DNA of 64,000 nt from Escherichia phage vB_EcoM_SP13: sequence record OP352608; one strand, given 5' to 3'. The translations under genes and the position numbers were made by a program. Under the pieces are notes generated by a model. It did not search any database. It worked only from the letters and a program-made list of their open reading frames with translations, and was not told the origin of the DNA. Shown here piece after piece: positions 390 to 62,922 of the stretch (position 1 is its first letter; the number at the start of each line of letters is the position of its first letter).

Positions 390-600
390 TTTCTTTCCAC
401 TCCACAAATGTGTTGCCGCTTGTTTCTCTGTTTAGCAGGTATCTGCCGCGCATCCCATGAAGGCTGAACTCAACCGTCGATGGATTAGATTTTGAAAGCC
501 ATATAGGCTGCCCGTCGAATGGACCGCCTACGCATGTATATTTCGCTTTTGGCTCACTCCTTTTGGGCCGTTTTGCCCGCTCTTTGATTGATAGTCTCAT
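379..600 (-). CDS. hypothetical protein
   Basis: 73-aa ORF, basic N-terminus; ATGA overlap with upstream gene at 600. Confidence 0.3.
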   Translation of the reverse strand: MRLSIKERAKRPKRSEPKAKYTCVGGPFDGQPIWLSKSNPSTVEFSLHGMRGRYLLNRETSGNTFVEWKENGK

Positions 601-815
601 CAGTCTTCACCTTGAGATTCCAGACAAGTAAGGACAAGCCAAGTCATCGGAAGAATCAAAACCAGAGAAATGAGGGACCAGATAGACCAGCACAGGATGA
701 CAGACTTGAATGTGTGAACGTCGCCAAACGCAGCAGTAAAACAGAATCCCATTACAAATGCAATAGCGGTGGAATGGTTGTCTATGGCTTTGATGGCACG
801 GTCGATGAGTTTCAT
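600..815 (-). CDS. small membrane protein (two predicted hydrophobic helices)
   Basis: 71-aa ORF with two long hydrophobic stretches; first gene of a leftward three-gene set. Confidence 0.35.
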   Translation of the reverse strand: MKLIDRAIKAIDNHSTAIAFVMGFCFTAAFGDVHTFKSVILCWSIWSLISLVLILPMTWLVLTCLESQGED

Positions 816-3273: not shown

Positions 3274-5649
3274 ATGAAAATTCTTGGCATAAAACTCTGG
3301 GAGAAGACGCGACCAGAAGCCGAACCAGCGGAGATGCCGCCAGGCGACCCATTGGCACCGTTTGAACGCCTTGAAAGGCGCGGCAGCGGTCAACGCTGGG
3401 AAAAGACTGAAAGCAATCGACCGACCTTTAAAACGGTTGATGACTTCCCTTTATATGAGCCTGATATTAACGGGGACGGTGTTGCAATCATCAAAGGTCG
3501 CTCAGTAGATTCAGCAACCGTATCCAAAAAAGTTATGGATAATGCCTTAAAGAACATCAGTTCAGAAGGGCAGGTGAATCCATACACAGTGCCTATTCAG
3601 TTGCAAAACTGGTACTTATCGCAATCATTTATCGGATATCAAGCTTGCGCCATCATCGCGCAGCACTGGCTAGTGAACAAGGCTTGTTCCATGGTAGGCC
3701 GCGATGCGGTCCGTAAAGGCTGGGAAGTCAAATCCAGTTCTGAGTCGGAATTGTCAGTACAGGCCAGCGAACGCTTAAAGCAAATTGATAAAGAATTTAA
3801 CATCAAAGAGCACTTAGTTGAAGCCGAACGATTCAAGAATATTTTTGGCATCCGCGTCATCATATTTGATGTGCGCAGTGATGACCCAGAATATTATAGC
3901 AAACCTTTTAACATCGATGGTGTGACAAAAGGGTCTTATAAGGGAATCATTCAGGTTGACCCTTATTGGATGATGCCATTCTTGACGTCTGAAAACACTG
4001 CAGACCCTGCGTCACAGCATTTCTATGATCCAGAATACTGGGTGATCAGCGGACAGCGTTATCATCGCAGCCACCTAATCATCTTGCGCAACGATGAGCC
4101 AGCTGATATTCTCAAGCCGACTTATATCTACGGCGGCATTCCTCTGACTCAGCAGATTTATGAACGTATCTATGCCGCTGAACGTACCGCTAACGAAGCG
4201 CCATTGCTGGCGATGTCTAAGCGTACAACCACGCTTCGGACCGACGTTGACAAGGCGATTGCCAATGAGCGGTCGTTTGCCGAACGTCTGATGATGTGGA
4301 TTAAGTACCGCGACAACTATGCAGTCAAAGTGCTTGGTCAGAAAGAAGAGATGGACCAGTTCGACATCAACTTGTCAGACTTCGACAGCATCATCATGAA
4401 CCAGTACCAGCTGGTGGCCGCAATCGCAAAAGTTCCGTCGACAAAACTGTTAGGGACGTCACCTAAAGGCTTTAACGCCACTGGTGAGTTCGAAATGGTC
4501 AGCTATCACGAAGAATTGGAGACTTGTCAACAGCACGATTTGACGAAGATTCTTGACCGCCACTATAAAATCCTTTTGAAGTCTGAAGGCGTGGAAGTCG
4601 ACGTTAAAGTGGCATGGGAGCCAGTTGGTTCACTTACTGCTACTCAGCTTGCAGAGATTAACGACAAACGAGCGAATACTGGCAAGACTCTCATTGATGC
4701 TGGCGTAATCTCCCCTGATGAAGAGCGCGACCGCATCAAGGACGACAAAAACAGCGGCTACAACCGTTTGCCGGAAGATGCAGCAGAAGAAACCCCAGGG
4801 ATGTCTCCAGAGAATATGGCACTGCTTGGCAAGTCTGCTGGTGAAGTTCTGCAAGGCAAGGCCGATATTGAACAGGCCAAAGCTGATGTTGTCAAGATGG
4901 GCGGCCAGTTCTATAGCGAGACTGGTATTATGCCGGAAGGTGCCGCGCGTGGTGAGTTGGCGGAAAACCCTGACAGGGCACCAGTTGAGATTAACATGGA
5001 TGATACCGATGACGAATCAAGCCATCACGTTGATGTCCTAACGCAACTGAAAGAAGGTCTGGAGGGTATTGCTGACTATTACCTTAAAGAAGGTCAGGAC
5101 GTGGATTTTGACCCTCAAAAAGATGCAAGGTCGGTGCAACCGTCTACGCTTCCAAGCGTAAAAGGAAATGTCGTGAACTTGCGACACAATGTAGGGAAGA
5201 TGGATGCTGCATCGCTGCCTAAGATGAAGTTGCACGGGATGATTCTTGGTATTGAGAATCCTCGCAACAGCATTCGCAGGGGTAACAGCCTTGATGGTGA
5301 ATGGGCAGTTAAGATGCCGCACCATTACGGATTTATCAAAGGCACCAAGGGCGCTGATGGTGATGAAGTCGACTGCTTTGTTGGACCAAACATGAAGTCG
5401 CCTAAAGTATTCATCATTAACCAAAATGATAATTATTCTGGCGAATTTGATGAACACAAGTGTATGCTTGGATTTGATTCAGCAGAAGAAGCGAAAGAAG
5501 CTTATCAGGCGTCATTTGGTAACGGTTGGAACGGATTTGACTCAATCCACGAATTGGATGTAAACTCATTCAAGGAGTGGTTGAAGGGTGATTGCTCTCA
5601 AGCATATGGAGCACTCAACAATCCTACTAATTCACCGAAGCAAGGTTGA
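3274..5649 (+). CDS. portal protein (putative) with C-terminal inorganic-pyrophosphatase-like domain
   Basis: Large ORF directly after terL; AGGTGG RBS 8 nt before ATG 3274; C-terminus carries YGFIKGTKGADGDEVDC, which fits the family I PPase signature D-[SGDN]-D-[PE]-[LIVMF]-D-[LIVMGAC]. Confidence 0.55.
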   Translation: MKILGIKLWEKTRPEAEPAEMPPGDPLAPFERLERRGSGQRWEKTESNRPTFKTVDDFPLYEPDINGDGVAIIKGRSVDSATVSKKVMDNALKNISSEGQVNPYTVPIQLQNWYLSQSFIGYQACAIIAQHWLVNKACSMVGRDAVRKGWEVKSSSESELSVQASERLKQIDKEFNIKEHLVEAERFKNIFGIRVIIFDVRSDDPEYYSKPFNIDGVTKGSYKGIIQVDPYWMMPFLTSENTADPASQHFYDPEYWVISGQRYHRSHLIILRNDEPADILKPTYIYGGIPLTQQIYERIYAAERTANEAPLLAMSKRTTTLRTDVDKAIANERSFAERLMMWIKYRDNYAVKVLGQKEEMDQFDINLSDFDSIIMNQYQLVAAIAKVPSTKLLGTSPKGFNATGEFEMVSYHEELETCQQHDLTKILDRHYKILLKSEGVEVDVKVAWEPVGSLTATQLAEINDKRANTGKTLIDAGVISPDEERDRIKDDKNSGYNRLPEDAAEETPGMSPENMALLGKSAGEVLQGKADIEQAKADVVKMGGQFYSETGIMPEGAARGELAENPDRAPVEINMDDTDDESSHHVDVLTQLKEGLEGIADYYLKEGQDVDFDPQKDARSVQPSTLPSVKGNVVNLRHNVGKMDAASLPKMKLHGMILGIENPRNSIRRGNSLDGEWAVKMPHHYGFIKGTKGADGDEVDCFVGPNMKSPKVFIINQNDNYSGEFDEHKCMLGFDSAEEAKEAYQASFGNGWNGFDSIHELDVNSFKEWLKGDCSQAYGALNNPTNSPKQG

Positions 5650-28906: not shown

Positions 28907-29551
28907 ATGATTAATGCAAACGTAATATCTAAAGGGACCGGATGCAGCATGGATGTTGCTGAAAAATGGGTCGACCCCTTCAAGCAGGCTTGTGAGCACT
29001 ACGGAATCAAAAGCAAGAATGCCATCGCGGCGTTGCTTGCAAACGTAGGAGTAGAAACAGGCAGTATGAAGACTTTTGTGGAGAACTTGAATTACTCCGC
29101 TCAAGGTCTTGCGAATACATGGCCTAGCCGTTACAGCGCCAGCGGTCGTTTCGGTGGCGCACCAAACTCCTTGGCATTGTCTATTGCCCGTAAACCAATG
29201 GAAATCGCCAATAATACATATGCAAACCGAATGGGCAATGGTTCGGTAGCATCTGGCGACGGTTGGAAGTACCGTGGCCGTGGTGCCATTCAGCTGACTG
29301 GAAAGGCTAACTATGCAGAGTATTCAAAGCAATCAGGGTATGATGCATTGAATAACCCTGACATTTTGACTGAGCCGAAACACATCGCTGACAGCGCGGC
29401 ATGGTTCTTCAAGAACAGCGGTTGCATCCCACTTGCTGATGCTGGCGCATTTGATTCGACTGTGAAGCGGATTAACGGGGCCGCGCCGAATACGGCTAAC
29501 CATGGAGATTTGCGACGGAAGCGTTACAAGGATGCACTAGCAGTTATGTAA
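28907..29551 (+). CDS. endolysin, glycoside hydrolase family 19-like
   Basis: YRGRGAIQLTGKANY motif characteristic of GH19 phage lysins; last gene of virion module. Confidence 0.6.
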   Translation: MINANVISKGTGCSMDVAEKWVDPFKQACEHYGIKSKNAIAALLANVGVETGSMKTFVENLNYSAQGLANTWPSRYSASGRFGGAPNSLALSIARKPMEIANNTYANRMGNGSVASGDGWKYRGRGAIQLTGKANYAEYSKQSGYDALNNPDILTEPKHIADSAAWFFKNSGCIPLADAGAFDSTVKRINGAAPNTANHGDLRRKRYKDALAVM

Positions 29552-29552
29552 G

Positions 29553-29580
29553 AAAAAGGCCCATATGGGCCTTTGTTTAT
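29553..29580. terminator. bidirectional rho-independent terminator
   Basis: Palindrome GGCCCATATGGGCC (29558-29571) flanked by A-run and T-run, between convergent genes. Confidence 0.65.
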
Positions 29581-29789
29581 TTTACGGCTTCAACCTGGAC
29601 GGGCGGCGCGGAACTTGTATCAATGTCTGGCAAGTCGAAGTAATACCCCGCCATGCCAATCACGCCAACAATCGCGGCCCGTGCCACCTTGTTGCTGATT
29701 GACTCCCCAATAAGCTTTACCAACAGGGACAAGATTTGAGACGTCAAAGCCTTTTTCAGCCTTTTGTTTTCTTCCAAATCTTTCTGCAT
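29577..29789 (-). CDS. small membrane protein (70 aa)
   Basis: GGGTGG RBS 5 nt before ATG 29789; C-terminal hydrophobic segment AAIVGVIGMAGYYF. Confidence 0.4.
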   Translation of the reverse strand: MQKDLEENKRLKKALTSQILSLLVKLIGESISNKVARAAIVGVIGMAGYYFDLPDIDTSSAPPVQVEAVK

Positions 29790-29803
29790 AACTACCACCC
29801 ATG

Positions 29804-30346
29804 TCAACGCACTTCCTGTGTCTTAACATTACCTGAAGCATCTCTTAAGGGCAGTGGATAGTAGGCCATTTGGTAGTCTGATACGCCTTCAACATGATAA
29901 AACACGATTACGTCTTTGCTGTTGATGAGCATGTTAACGACATCTGATTTATCTTCTGGAGTGAGTATGAGTGCGCCGCCTGTCCTGCTGTCTACTGCAA
30001 CAGGGTATGTCTTATCGACAAGGCCGCTGTCCAATGTATTATACCTGACAACGATTTCAGGGGCATCAACTTTTGCAATTGACATTCCGAACACAAACGA
30101 CACGACTTGGCGACCGCGATCATTCATTACGCACATCTTTTCCTTATCAAACCTTTCCTTTATCACATCATATTTGTTCCAACAAAATTCGAACGATTGG
30201 CCGTTGTTAAAATATCTCGTTAATACTTTTGCATTGCTGTTTGGCGGCGTAAACATACTTTCAGCCGCTGCACTTTTGGTGAAGAACAAAACTGTCAGCA
30301 TAGCCATGATGATGATCAAAACAATCTTTAAGTTTTTCGATTTCAT
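29804..30346 (-). CDS. secreted protein of unknown function
   Basis: N-terminal signal-peptide-like sequence MKSKNLKIVLIIIMAMLTVLFFTKSAAAE; own TTTACT-N16-TATACT promoter upstream. Confidence 0.5.
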   Translation of the reverse strand: MKSKNLKIVLIIIMAMLTVLFFTKSAAAESMFTPPNSNAKVLTRYFNNGQSFEFCWNKYDVIKERFDKEKMCVMNDRGRQVVSFVFGMSIAKVDAPEIVVRYNTLDSGLVDKTYPVAVDSRTGGALILTPEDKSDVVNMLINSKDVIVFYHVEGVSDYQMAYYPLPLRDASGNVKTQEVR

Positions 30347-30423
30347 TATAATTCACCTTTTGATTACGAATATTAATAGTATAGGCCGAAGGTTTTGAAA
30401 GTAAATAAGGCGAAAGGTAAATA

Positions 30424-30448
30424 AAAGAAAAGCCGGAGATTTCCGGCT
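30424..30448. terminator. rho-independent terminator (AGCCGGA / TCCGGCT)
   Basis: 7-bp stem, 4-nt loop, flanked by A-run and T-run. Confidence 0.55.
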
Positions 30449-30522
30449 TTATGTATACACTGTATATTAAATTCTATAAAACGACGAGATAGATTATCCG
30501 CACCAATTATTTATCTAGTGTC

Positions 30523-31500
30523 TTAGAAATACTCCATATCGGTAATATCACGGAAGCATTTATACAAAGCAGAGCGCGGCACGTCAACGATGCCAAAGTT
30601 AAAGAATTTATACGTAAGGTATTTATCGCGATAGTTTTCGCGATTCTCCCAAAGCATTTTACGCTCTGCCATAGGCATTGAACCAGCGGAGACGCGGAAA
30701 GGAATCATTTCACCTTTCTCATCCACATATTTTGGATTGACGACTACGAATGAGCCAAGGTATCCTTTCGCAACTAAACCTTCAGCCTCTTTTGAACGCT
30801 TGGTGCGACCCAATTCGTCAATGAATGCTTCGTTGTTGTTCTCCATCATCTCAACGAAGTCTATGATCAATCCTTCTTCATCGGTCCACGGCTTGTCCTT
30901 CCACACATCACGTGACTTCGGCGTCGCGCGGCCATGCTTGTATTTGCCCGTCCAAGACTTGCCATACAAGCCTTCATATCCAAGCTGGTCCGCTTCGATT
31001 TGCATCGCCGCGTACTGTTCCATATTTTCGATGTTTCGATATTCGAGAGCGCGAAGGAATGGGCGTCGACCATGGTTGATGAGATGTTGATTAACTTCAG
31101 CAACTCTAGCTCGATAGTTCGCATAACGCTTTTCAAAAGGCAAATCAGGGTCGCTGAAGTCATCAAACACCCACCATGTAAAGTTAGTGATTGCATCAGT
31201 ATTCATGCACGCAGTATAGGCCTGTTGCATGACGTTCTTGTCATTTGGATTGCCGTCGATTAGCTCTCCATCAAGTCCGTGAATTAGTTCACCCAAAAAG
31301 AGGAATTCTTTTTTGATTTGAACGTTTCTCAGCGCCATGCCGGACGTGCCCATTGGCAAGTTGTCATACGCCATTGCGCGTATTCCATCGACCTTGAATG
31401 ACAATCCGCAAGGCAGCGGCACGTCTTCGCCGCGCTCGATTATTTGCTTACGCTGGCAACCCTTCATTGGTTTTAATGCTTTGATTTCTCCTGCCATCAC
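30523..31500 (-). CDS. ATP-dependent DNA ligase
   Basis: Adenylation motif I FKVDGIR near N-terminus; 325 aa consistent with minimal phage ligases; AAGGAG RBS. Confidence 0.6.
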   Translation of the reverse strand: MMAGEIKALKPMKGCQRKQIIERGEDVPLPCGLSFKVDGIRAMAYDNLPMGTSGMALRNVQIKKEFLFLGELIHGLDGELIDGNPNDKNVMQQAYTACMNTDAITNFTWWVFDDFSDPDLPFEKRYANYRARVAEVNQHLINHGRRPFLRALEYRNIENMEQYAAMQIEADQLGYEGLYGKSWTGKYKHGRATPKSRDVWKDKPWTDEEGLIIDFVEMMENNNEAFIDELGRTKRSKEAEGLVAKGYLGSFVVVNPKYVDEKGEMIPFRVSAGSMPMAERKMLWENRENYRDKYLTYKFFNFGIVDVPRSALYKCFRDITDMEYF

Positions 31501-32090: not shown

Positions 32091-32606
32091 TTATTTTTCC
32101 TTTGATGCATTGAATTGATCGATTTTTATTTTAGCCTGATTATAAGTATCAATCAAGCTATTAACTTTCTCTTTTAATCGATTTGTTTCTGCGGCGAACT
32201 GAACAAGAAATCTGACATCCTCTTCTGATAGTCCACAGTTTCCTTCTGGGATAGAGAGGCGTCCAGTGGTCGCAGAGTCGGGCACACTCCTGAGTAACTC
32301 ACGGGAGCAGCTGAGTTGCTCGCGCAACTTGACATTCCCAGACTTGTAACGAGCAATAGTGTCATCAGCAACCAGTTGCGCTTCCTGGCGACCCTTCTCA
32401 TATGCCGATGCCGATTCAACCTGTAAAGTTGCAATTTGCTCTTCGAGTGCATTTATCTTGTCCTTACGCTCATTAAGCGATGTCAGATATTGATTATCCT
32501 TGGCCAGTGATGCGTTGGTTTGCTGCAGGTCTTCAACGTATGATCCAGCGGCAAACGCGCCAACAAGGGCCAGAATCTTCAGGAGCGGTACAATTCTTTC
32601 TATCAT
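32091..32606 (-). CDS. Rz-like i-spanin (putative)
   Basis: N-terminal hydrophobic anchor followed by long coiled-coil-like region; contains an embedded out-of-frame lipoprotein-like ORF. Confidence 0.4.
   Translation of the reverse strand: MIERIVPLLKILALVGAFAAGSYVEDLQQTNASLAKDNQYLTSLNERKDKINALEEQIATLQVESASAYEKGRQEAQLVADDTIARYKSGNVKLREQLSCSRELLRSVPDSATTGRLSIPEGNCGLSEEDVRFLVQFAAETNRLKEKVNSLIDTYNQAKIKIDQFNASKEK
32174..32365 (-). CDS. Rz1-like o-spanin embedded in alternative frame (putative)
   Basis: 63 aa from internal Met: MTLLLVTSLGMSSC (signal plus lipobox-like Cys), Pro-containing mature part; entirely inside 32091-32606 in another frame. Confidence 0.35.
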   Translation of the reverse strand: MTLLLVTSLGMSSCASNSAAPVSYSGVCPTLRPLDASLSQKETVDYQKRMSDFLFSSPQKQID

Positions 32607-62423: not shown

Positions 62424-62451
62424 ATTATAATATAGTGTAGAAAAAAGTAAA
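62424..62451 (-). promoter_or_regulatory. promoter TTTACT-N16-TATAAT (minus-strand copy of cassette)
   Basis: Minus -35 at 62446-62451 and -10 at 62424-62429; same cassette as 62894-62922. Confidence 0.5.
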
Positions 62452-62495: not shown

Positions 62496-62523
62496 TTTAC
62501 TTCTTCGTACACTCGCGTATACT
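62496..62523 (+). promoter_or_regulatory. promoter TTTACT-N16-TATACT (cassette copy)
   Basis: -35 at 62496-62501, -10 at 62518-62523; followed by GGGAG RBS and ATG 62580. Confidence 0.5.
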
Positions 62524-62893: not shown

Positions 62894-62922
62894 TTTACTT
62901 CTTAGTACACTAAGACTATAAT
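62894..62922 (+). promoter_or_regulatory. promoter TTTACT-N17-TATAAT followed by 5' UTR hairpin
   Basis: -35 at 62894-62899, -10 at 62917-62922; hairpin GGTAGCGA / TCGCTACC at 62945-62965; AGGAG RBS; ATG 62990. Confidence 0.55.

Follow-up and report, generated by a model that had tools for sequence, protein, structure and literature searches.

Two studies have described members of a small phage protein family that is encoded beside the endolysin gene. PA1-LRP, the product of open reading frame (ORF) 13 of Pantoea phage PA1, has been expressed in E. coli both alone and fused to the endolysin (Tian et al. 2024, PMC11538084). In Pseudomonas phage 14-1, mapping of transcript starts and ends singled out the unit TU021, which holds only the orthologous gene gp48 and has its own start and stop (PMC10914365). 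The corresponding locus is analysed here in a stretch of 64,000 nucleotides from Escherichia phage vB_EcoM_SP13 (sequence record OP352608), referred to below as the window. In this phage a 70-amino-acid orthologue is encoded on the minus strand together with a 180-amino-acid exported protein, the two genes forming a compact cassette. Across 1.2 kb around the cassette the sequence is 100% identical to Escherichia phage F13, which assigns the window to the genus Wifcevirus. The same 1.2 kb is 92-98% identical to 27 further Wifcevirus records, among them WFC, WFH, ECML-117, FEC19, vB_Eco4M-7, Mansfield and Bas98-101. Wifceviruses are myoviruses of 66-72 kb and distant kin of the Pseudomonas Pbunavirus (PB1-like) group (PMC11990801).

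Expressed alone in E. coli, PA1-LRP lowered the optical density by 13-20%, caused beta-galactosidase to leak and killed about 25% of the cells, the deaths being read after 24 h. Fused to the endolysin it lowered the optical density by 44-75%, and the Lys-LRP fusions turned E. coli filamentous. A two-hybrid assay between PA1-LRP and the endolysin was negative, TMHMM reported a hydrophobic region and no transmembrane domain, and the authors' search for a holin in PA1 was unsuccessful. PA1 ORF14, the homologue of the 180-residue protein, lay outside the scope of that study (PMC11538084). The published primers encode MVRRRR...QKVEQQK, which corresponds to the PA1 locus L008:3550-3771 and identifies PA1-LRP as the orthologue of the small protein. 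For the 14-1 unit TU021 a G+C content below that of its neighbours was reported, and the unit was termed moron-like (PMC10914365).

The anatomy of the locus in vB_EcoM_SP13 is secure: it is an insulated unit for two proteins, one periplasmic and of a binding type, the other small and membrane-active. Concerning its function, we tentatively favour an autonomous two-gene unit whose products act at the envelope, in the first place as accessories of host lysis. This reading rests on the constant position of the unit beside the endolysin gene, the PA1-LRP experiments and the lack of a recognised holin. PB1-like myoviruses, including the very fast-lysing Wifceviruses, possess an endolysin and spanins and no experimentally established holin. 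The locus provides one small membrane-active gene beside the endolysin in every PB1-like genus examined, to which the enterobacterial and Xanthomonas lineages add a co-transcribed periplasmic partner, so far unstudied.

An earlier sequence-only reading of this DNA had recognised a minus-strand pair of 180 and 70 amino acids lying between two hairpin terminators. The ORFs, the folding energies and the annotation of the phages Mansfield and WFC, in which both hairpins are independently marked, all bear this out. The downstream hairpin (Table 1) has 8 pairs with T-runs on both sides, a terminator signature on either strand, and a folding energy of -13.2 kcal/mol (z = -3.5 against shuffles); the equivalent site is annotated as a both-strand terminator in Mansfield and in 14-1. 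The upstream hairpin, read from 30450 to 30429 on the minus strand, has 9 pairs followed by UUUUCUUUU, with a folding energy of -13.6 kcal/mol (z = -6.0). A hairpin with a T-run occupies the same position upstream in six diverged relatives, and a hairpin stands 3' of the small gene in 8 of the 8 loci examined. Purifying selection acts on both genes: against phage Mansfield the ratio of non-synonymous to synonymous substitution (dN/dS) is 0.00 in the small gene and 0.10 in its neighbour. An alternative TTG start of the small gene (29807) overlaps the stop codon of the 180-residue gene, and in relatives the stop and start of the two genes overlap or stand 12-55 nucleotides apart, pointing to close coupling. 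The G+C content is 0.34-0.44 over the exported-protein gene and its leader, against about 0.50 in the flanks. It falls to 0.34-0.38 at 30050-30650, that is over the 5' half of the gene and the upstream spacer, a dip that matches the lower G+C content of the orthologous 14-1 unit.

The cassette had also been credited with a promoter of its own, TTTACT-N16-TATACT. This sequence agrees with the consensus at 9 of 12 positions. Judged simply as a sigma-70 site it does not exceed chance expectation, the window containing 5 such sites against 6.3 expected. The specific form TTTACT-N15-18-TATAMT, however, occurs 4 times in the 64-kb window, where 0.03 copies are expected, and all four are intergenic. 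Six diverged versions of the locus (35-95% protein identity), when aligned, all keep the -10 element and its spacing to the start codon as well as the ribosome-binding site AAAGGTGA. The promoter is thus credible, owing to the over-representation of its specific form and the conservation of its -10 element. The other three copies are divergent or tandem promoters ahead of small ORFs, and their coordinates place them in the direct terminal repeat of 3.7 kb that is predicted for phage Mansfield. The terminal repeat is where immediate-early promoters are expected, and the three promoters there are probably immediate-early. Since the cassette promoter, which lies on the strand opposite to the endolysin, belongs to the same class, the cassette is predicted to be read from early infection, probably by unmodified host polymerase. 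TACACT is present in the spacer of all three terminal-repeat copies and could be an operator. That the cassette is independently transcribed, as the sequence-only reading proposed, agrees with the mapping of its orthologue 14-1 gp48 as a single-gene unit (PMC10914365). An independent transcript has been demonstrated in 14-1 only, and permeabilisation and assistance to the endolysin in PA1 only; by analogy, both may apply to the present phage.

The 180-residue protein was taken to carry a signal peptide, and manual analysis upholds this. Its n-region is basic (K2, K4, K7), its hydrophobic core of 15 residues has a hydropathy of 3.2, and the A-x-A cleavage motif AAA/ES delimits a signal peptide of residues 1-28 in which there is no lipobox cysteine. 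The protein therefore has the basic n-region, h-region, A-x-A motif and freedom from a lipobox that characterise a Sec signal. The three-part layout and the A-x-A motif are kept in all homologues while the residues vary, as is the behaviour of signal peptides.

The mature part is predicted to be a periplasmic beta-sandwich domain of 152 amino acids with two invariant cysteines, C55 and C72. Modelled with an 11-sequence alignment, the mature domain consists mostly of beta strands with one helix and reaches a predicted local distance difference test (pLDDT) of 92.3 and a predicted template modelling score of 0.86; a full-length model made with a 5-sequence alignment was discarded (pLDDT 44.6). 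The modelled beta-sandwich resembles periplasmic IalB of Bartonella (PDB 3dtd) and the N-domain of Vibrio MotY (PDB 8z5n chain A), whose sequences are 3-9% identical to that of the 180-residue protein. This is a resemblance in the fold of a predicted model rather than demonstrated homology, and it transfers no function. At the level of sequence profiles there is no match to IalB (Pfam PF06776) or to the MotY N-domain, and searches of Pfam, NCBIfam, PADLOC and the PDB sequence profiles gave no match for the protein. A Foldseek search of the PDB returned only noise, mostly TEAD at a template modelling score below 0.3. The known lysozyme inhibitors (Ivy, PliC/MliC, PliG) and T4 Spackle are absent among the top structure matches listed.

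Among predicted viral structures the best matches are to Serratia phage MTx (E = 5.6e-7) and to A0A889IR04 (E = 2.2e-4), followed by phage RB16 and Xanthomonas phage Carpasina (E = 5e-3 each); all four are uncharacterised proteins. The relationship to the MTx protein, MTx_059, is seen also when it is compared with the family profile by hhalign (93% probability, E = 2.6e-7). The exported proteins form a small, phage-only family, recognised by sequence or structure in four genera. About ten full-length sequences came out of searches covering 5.8 billion proteins (by index) and 1.84 billion cluster representatives (exhaustively, with HMMER); five of them sit in sequences of 46-72 kb that look like whole phage genomes. 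A 1250-residue repeat protein, P0011, from the exhaustive search was set aside as an apparent artefact of summed repeat matches. By tblastn, matches to the 180-residue protein are confined to Wifcevirus (28 records) and the Pantoea Kylevirus phages Kyle and PA1.

The small protein belongs by sequence similarity to a family known variously as PHROG 5165, PA1-LRP, 14-1 gp48 and E217 gp49. It matches PHROG 5165 with E = 2.3e-8, a profile to which E217 gp49 and MTx_058 match with 2e-55 and 2.9e-12, respectively, and tblastn with the small protein finds 289 Pseudomonas phage records (about 4e-5) and Kyle (5e-10). Its gene also has the position typical of the family: it lies downstream of the DNA ligase operon, runs towards the endolysin gene and is followed by a hairpin terminator. 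PA1-LRP is about 39% identical to the 70-residue protein and of the same length class, the two having in common the core L..LLVRLIGE[ST]VKD+..R..LIG and a gene placed between those of the endolysin and the exported protein. PA1-LRP nevertheless comes from another genus and host, and its activity was measured by overexpression and fusion in E. coli. Pbunavirus gp48 (14-1, TU021) and gp49 (E217) are 37.7% identical over 87% by tblastn (E = 4e-5) and likewise converge on the endolysin between two terminators, gp48 of 14-1 being a single-gene transcript. They differ in a more basic N-terminus, a longer tail and the lack of an exported-protein gene alongside. Identification of the small protein with the Pbunavirus YfiN-binding peptide YIP was considered and rejected, YIP being gp11, another gene.

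Eight homologues are built alike. A basic N-terminus leads into an amphipathic helix; an invariant G-E-[ST] turn and an invariant arginine follow, then a hydrophobic helix and finally an acidic, proline-rich tail. The net charge of the N-terminal part is +2 to +9 and that of the tail -1 to -6 in all eight, the tail containing 2-10 prolines. Should the protein insert at all, this asymmetry and the positive-inside rule would together fit a C-terminus outside and an N-terminus inside. The description of the product as a membrane protein in the sequence-only reading holds in part. A hydrophobic stretch is indeed present, but in six of the eight homologues no uncharged stretch exceeds 14 residues (16-17 in MTx and Carpasina), and the best 19-residue hydropathy is 1.2-1.4 in the three homologues scored, below the usual cut-off of 1.6. 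The same hydropathy measure gives 1.6-1.7 for lambda S and S21. A crude sum of insertion energies on the Hessa scale is +3 to +9 for the small-protein homologues compared with +4.3 for lambda S. The segment being marginal, a membrane protein is plausible from its sequence rather than established.

The cassette lies where the virion module, at its tail-fibre/endolysin end, meets a block of ligase, MazG, spanin and replication genes, the location given in the sequence-only reading, and the order of genes around it is shared widely. In Wifcevirus, Kylevirus and Myosmarvirus the tail-fibre and endolysin genes run towards the small gene, the exported-protein gene and the ligase, MazG and spanin genes, which are read, in that order of position, from the opposite strand. 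In the Myosmarvirus MTx the endolysin gene faces MTx_058 (69 amino acids), behind which stand MTx_059 (169 amino acids, with a signal peptide), MTx_060 and the ligase gene. The core order in Carpasinavirus is alike, with one extra membrane-protein gene between the exported-protein gene and the ligase gene. There the lytic enzyme gene faces an unannotated small ORF, followed by genes for a 253-residue protein, composed of an N-terminal membrane anchor, a linker and a beta domain, and a multi-pass membrane protein of 112 residues, and then the ligase gene. The latter membrane protein is AWD92429 (phrog_4915). The small ORF of Carpasina (L012, MH059633; about 3932-4177, plus strand), unannotated in GenBank, encodes the small-protein homologue VARRKKP…ELLIKLVGESVKGRLLRAALIGT…. 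The pair is found at the same place in two metagenomic relatives and two Pantoea phages. In Pbunavirus, by contrast, the small gene (E217 gp49, 14-1 gp48; 289 Pseudomonas phage records) stands alone, about 280 bp of non-coding DNA before it filling the place that the 180-residue gene has in the present phage.

From this distribution the small gene emerges as a core gene of the PB1-like assemblage and the exported-protein gene as a long-standing partner absent from Pbunavirus. Thus the gene order indicates that the pair is old, and yet its two members have different histories, a point that the sequence-only reading had missed. A close metagenomic relative (L009), whose ligase is 81% identical, has exchanged its endolysin for one of another family, its cassette and tail-fibre gene being unchanged. 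The cassette is accordingly not tied to one type of enzyme. Such independence is in keeping with a generic membrane role, and it agrees with the negative two-hybrid assay between PA1-LRP and the endolysin. As regards novelty, the small gene is an addition to a family already treated in two papers, and independent transcription had already been shown for an orthologue. What is new is the recognition of the exported protein as a conserved co-transcribed partner across four non-Pbunavirus genera, a confident model that gives it a predicted fold like those of IalB and the MotY N-domain, and the link between the promoter class of the cassette and the promoters of the terminal repeat.

The cassette proteins are not evident components of the virion. 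In particle mass spectrometry of the Wifceviruses vB_Eco4M-7 (gp65, gp66) and ECML-117 (gp63, gp64) neither protein is listed, whereas the flanking endolysin appears in both lists and even a helicase was detected (PMC7048862). Had they been conserved virion proteins, this would have contradicted the idea of an exported accessory put forward in the sequence-only reading, which had proposed superinfection exclusion, modification of the host envelope or an accessory role in lysis. The last of these fits what is known of the orthologue PA1-LRP, albeit indirectly (PMC11538084). On the other two the evidence is neutral, and the early-type promoter suits them.

The favoured explanation, an envelope-acting unit that assists lysis, can be set out as follows. 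Host sigma-70 RNA polymerase would start at TTTACT-N16-TATACT and stop at the bidirectional hairpin held in common with the endolysin operon. The upstream gene would give a 17-kDa protein, exported by Sec and cut after A28 by signal peptidase I, which in the periplasm would fold as a non-enzymatic beta-sandwich binding module. The downstream gene would give a helical hairpin of 70 amino acids at the inner membrane, with the acidic, proline-rich tail facing outwards and the basic N-terminus facing inwards. Once its occupancy there is high, this protein may weaken the membrane barrier and so allow the endolysin, which is without a signal or signal-arrest-release sequence, to reach the cell wall, in a holin-like or holin-assisting manner. 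The periplasmic protein may tune this activity from the outside, as an antiholin does, which would explain why it is dispensable in Pbunavirus. What we infer in this scheme is the topology, that the two proteins interact and that they affect the timing of lysis. A bolder view, to which we give little credence, sees in the small protein the missing membrane-lesion factor of the whole PB1-like group, a non-canonical, sub-transmembrane "holin" with an early-type promoter, and in the IalB/MotY-like protein a novel type of secreted antiholin or timer that binds the proline-rich tail; the two together would set the latent period of Wifceviruses, which is unusually short at about 10 min.

Several observations weigh against an accessory role in lysis. 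Adjacency to the endolysin adds little, because it is inherited with a common backbone and the genera are not independent observations. The PA1 data are soft, consisting of pET overexpression, 24-h readouts and fusion proteins, and the partnership of the two cassette proteins is itself inferred. Comparison with the canonical holins lambda S, S21 and T4 T is equivocal. The small protein resembles them in its size, its place beside the endolysin and the want of any other annotated holin, and its orthologue PA1-LRP raises membrane permeability and helps the endolysin. It differs from them in having no convincing transmembrane domain, the hydrophobic segment being short and weak (14 residues in 6 of 8 homologues) and TMHMM having called none in PA1-LRP, and its charged end is the N-terminus, not the C-terminus. 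The effect of PA1-LRP is mild, unlike that of a typical holin, and the toxicity of LRP alone is far below that of a true one. Furthermore, the promoter looks early and not late, suggesting expression that is constitutive or begins early. Holins are not usually expressed in this way, and an early envelope function is favoured over a classical late holin. With a Wifcevirus latent period of about 10 min (PMC7048862), the distinction between early and late becomes less sharp.

The same promoter evidence lends itself to superinfection exclusion or envelope protection by an early-made pair, which we regard as rather unlikely but as a serious rival. The periplasmic protein would bind the tail lysozyme or tip of an incoming phage, or a host envelope component, and the small protein would block the entry of DNA. 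The cassette promoter shares its class with the probable immediate-early promoters of the terminal repeat, the exported product is modelled as a non-enzymatic binding fold, and this partner diverges strongly between host genera (16-37% identity), as an exclusion factor might. The moron-like insulation and low G+C content, remarked on also for 14-1 gp48 (PMC10914365), fit as well, and the mild toxicity of PA1-LRP is expected of any small membrane protein that is overexpressed. No exclusion phenotype has been reported, however, and the small gene keeps about 40% identity between phages of hosts as far apart as E. coli, Xanthomonas and Pseudomonas, an unusual stability for such a factor. An early-type promoter would equally suit a host-takeover unit outside lysis and exclusion, directed at cell division or envelope stress signalling, for which closeness to the endolysin would be a historical accident. 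PB1-like phages do encode small membrane peptides against host signalling, such as YIP, the product of 14-1 gp11 (PMC8085984), and the Lys-LRP fusions gave filamentous E. coli (PMC11538084). Yet only the fusion, and not LRP by itself, caused filamentation; no host target is known; and every genus examined has retained the place beside the endolysin. We consider this explanation improbable.

Phage T4 offers further analogies. Its Spackle and Imm, periplasmic and membrane proteins respectively, act in superinfection exclusion, and its RI and RIII in lysis inhibition. As is proposed for the present cassette, a secreted periplasmic protein and a small membrane or cytoplasmic protein work at the envelope of the infected cell; there is, however, no similarity in sequence or fold, and the T4 genes are not co-transcribed as pairs. 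On the RI/RIII model the cassette would encode a lysis-inhibition pair restraining a separate holin, such as the 71-residue protein considered below, with the secreted protein acting from the periplasmic side and the small protein from the cytoplasmic side, as RI and RIII act on holin T. The two-helix small proteins, of about 70-83 amino acids and not clearly transmembrane, recall RIII with its 82, the periplasmic partner recalls the released RI domain, and the genome does hold a separate strong membrane-protein candidate. This explanation strikes us as very doubtful: neither protein has sequence similarity to RI or RIII, Pbunavirus retains the small gene alone, PA1-LRP promoted rather than delayed membrane damage, and Wifcevirus lysis takes about 10 min with no lysis inhibition reported (PMC7048862).

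Lysis control, if that is the function of the pair, would imply a non-canonical route of endolysin release and of its regulation; exclusion of other phages, if true, would be relevant to the design of phage cocktails. In Pseudomonas phage therapy the Pbunavirus phages find wide use. Both proposals, of lysis control and of exclusion, are open to direct test, given the confident structural model and the family alignment.

No holin is named in any Wifcevirus record whose annotation was examined. An alternative candidate in the window is a 71-residue ORF (Table 1), which is 96-100% conserved in 28 of 28 Wifcevirus records, absent elsewhere and without a PHROG match. Its product could be the holin, and this too counts against the lysis role favoured for the cassette. 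A counterpart of the "holin" named in some Pbunavirus records, E217 gp11, was sought and rejected, the two ORFs after the terminase gene in the window having no transmembrane domains. In E217 (NC_042079, L013) gp11 (4895-5332, minus strand) encodes 145 amino acids with three transmembrane domains, and gp9 (3643-4026, minus strand) encodes 127 amino acids with hydrophobic segments at both ends. Both belong to a leftward cluster after the terminase gene, which in this window is reduced to the two non-membrane ORFs.

Table 1. Features of the cassette and of related loci; coordinates refer to the window unless another sequence is named
Feature	Coordinates	Strand	Remarks
180-amino-acid exported-protein gene	29804-30346	-	ORF
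Small-protein gene	29577-29789	-	70 amino acids from ATG at 29789, start as annotated in relatives
Small ORF, mechanical call	29577-29807	-	76 amino acids from TTG at 29807
Promoter TTTACT-N16-TATACT	30378-30405	-	sigma-70-type
Upstream intrinsic terminator	30429-30450	-	ends ligase/MazG/spanin operon, insulates cassette
Downstream bidirectional terminator	29555-29574	both	common to cassette (-) and endolysin/late operon (+)
GH19-type endolysin	28907-29551	+	Pfam PF00182, phrog_181; outside cassette, runs towards it
i-spanin	32091-32606	-	one operon with MazG and DNA ligase
o-spanin	32174-32452	-	embedded in i-spanin gene
71-amino-acid ORF	600-815	-	two strong transmembrane segments
TTTACT-type promoter copy	62424-62451	-	TTTACT-N16-17-TATA[AC]T
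TTTACT-type promoter copy	62496-62523	+	TTTACT-N16-17-TATA[AC]T
TTTACT-type promoter copy	62894-62922	+	TTTACT-N16-17-TATA[AC]T
Swapped endolysin, metagenomic relative	L009 4803-5255	-	phrog_90, 150 amino acids, replaces GH19 enzyme

The spanin genes lie about 2.5 kb from the endolysin gene and on the opposite strand. As they belong to the MazG/ligase operon, apart from the endolysin, the lysis genes are spread over at least three transcription units.

The spacer between the ligase gene and the cassette has features of its own. The motif GGRTAATC, which resembles the CTGGG promoter motif of 14-1, was rejected as a promoter element since it does not recur elsewhere in the window. A structured RNA in this spacer is likewise unsupported, the six loci showing no covariation and the covariation term being positive. 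An inverted pair, ACACT ... AGTGT, around about 57 nucleotides is invariant in six diverged loci and here lies within 30451-30520 on the minus strand, between the ligase stop codon and the upstream terminator; it may serve protein binding or processing, or it may be a remnant. Directly 3' of the ligase stop codon stands ACACTAGATA, which is common even to Pseudomonas phage E217.

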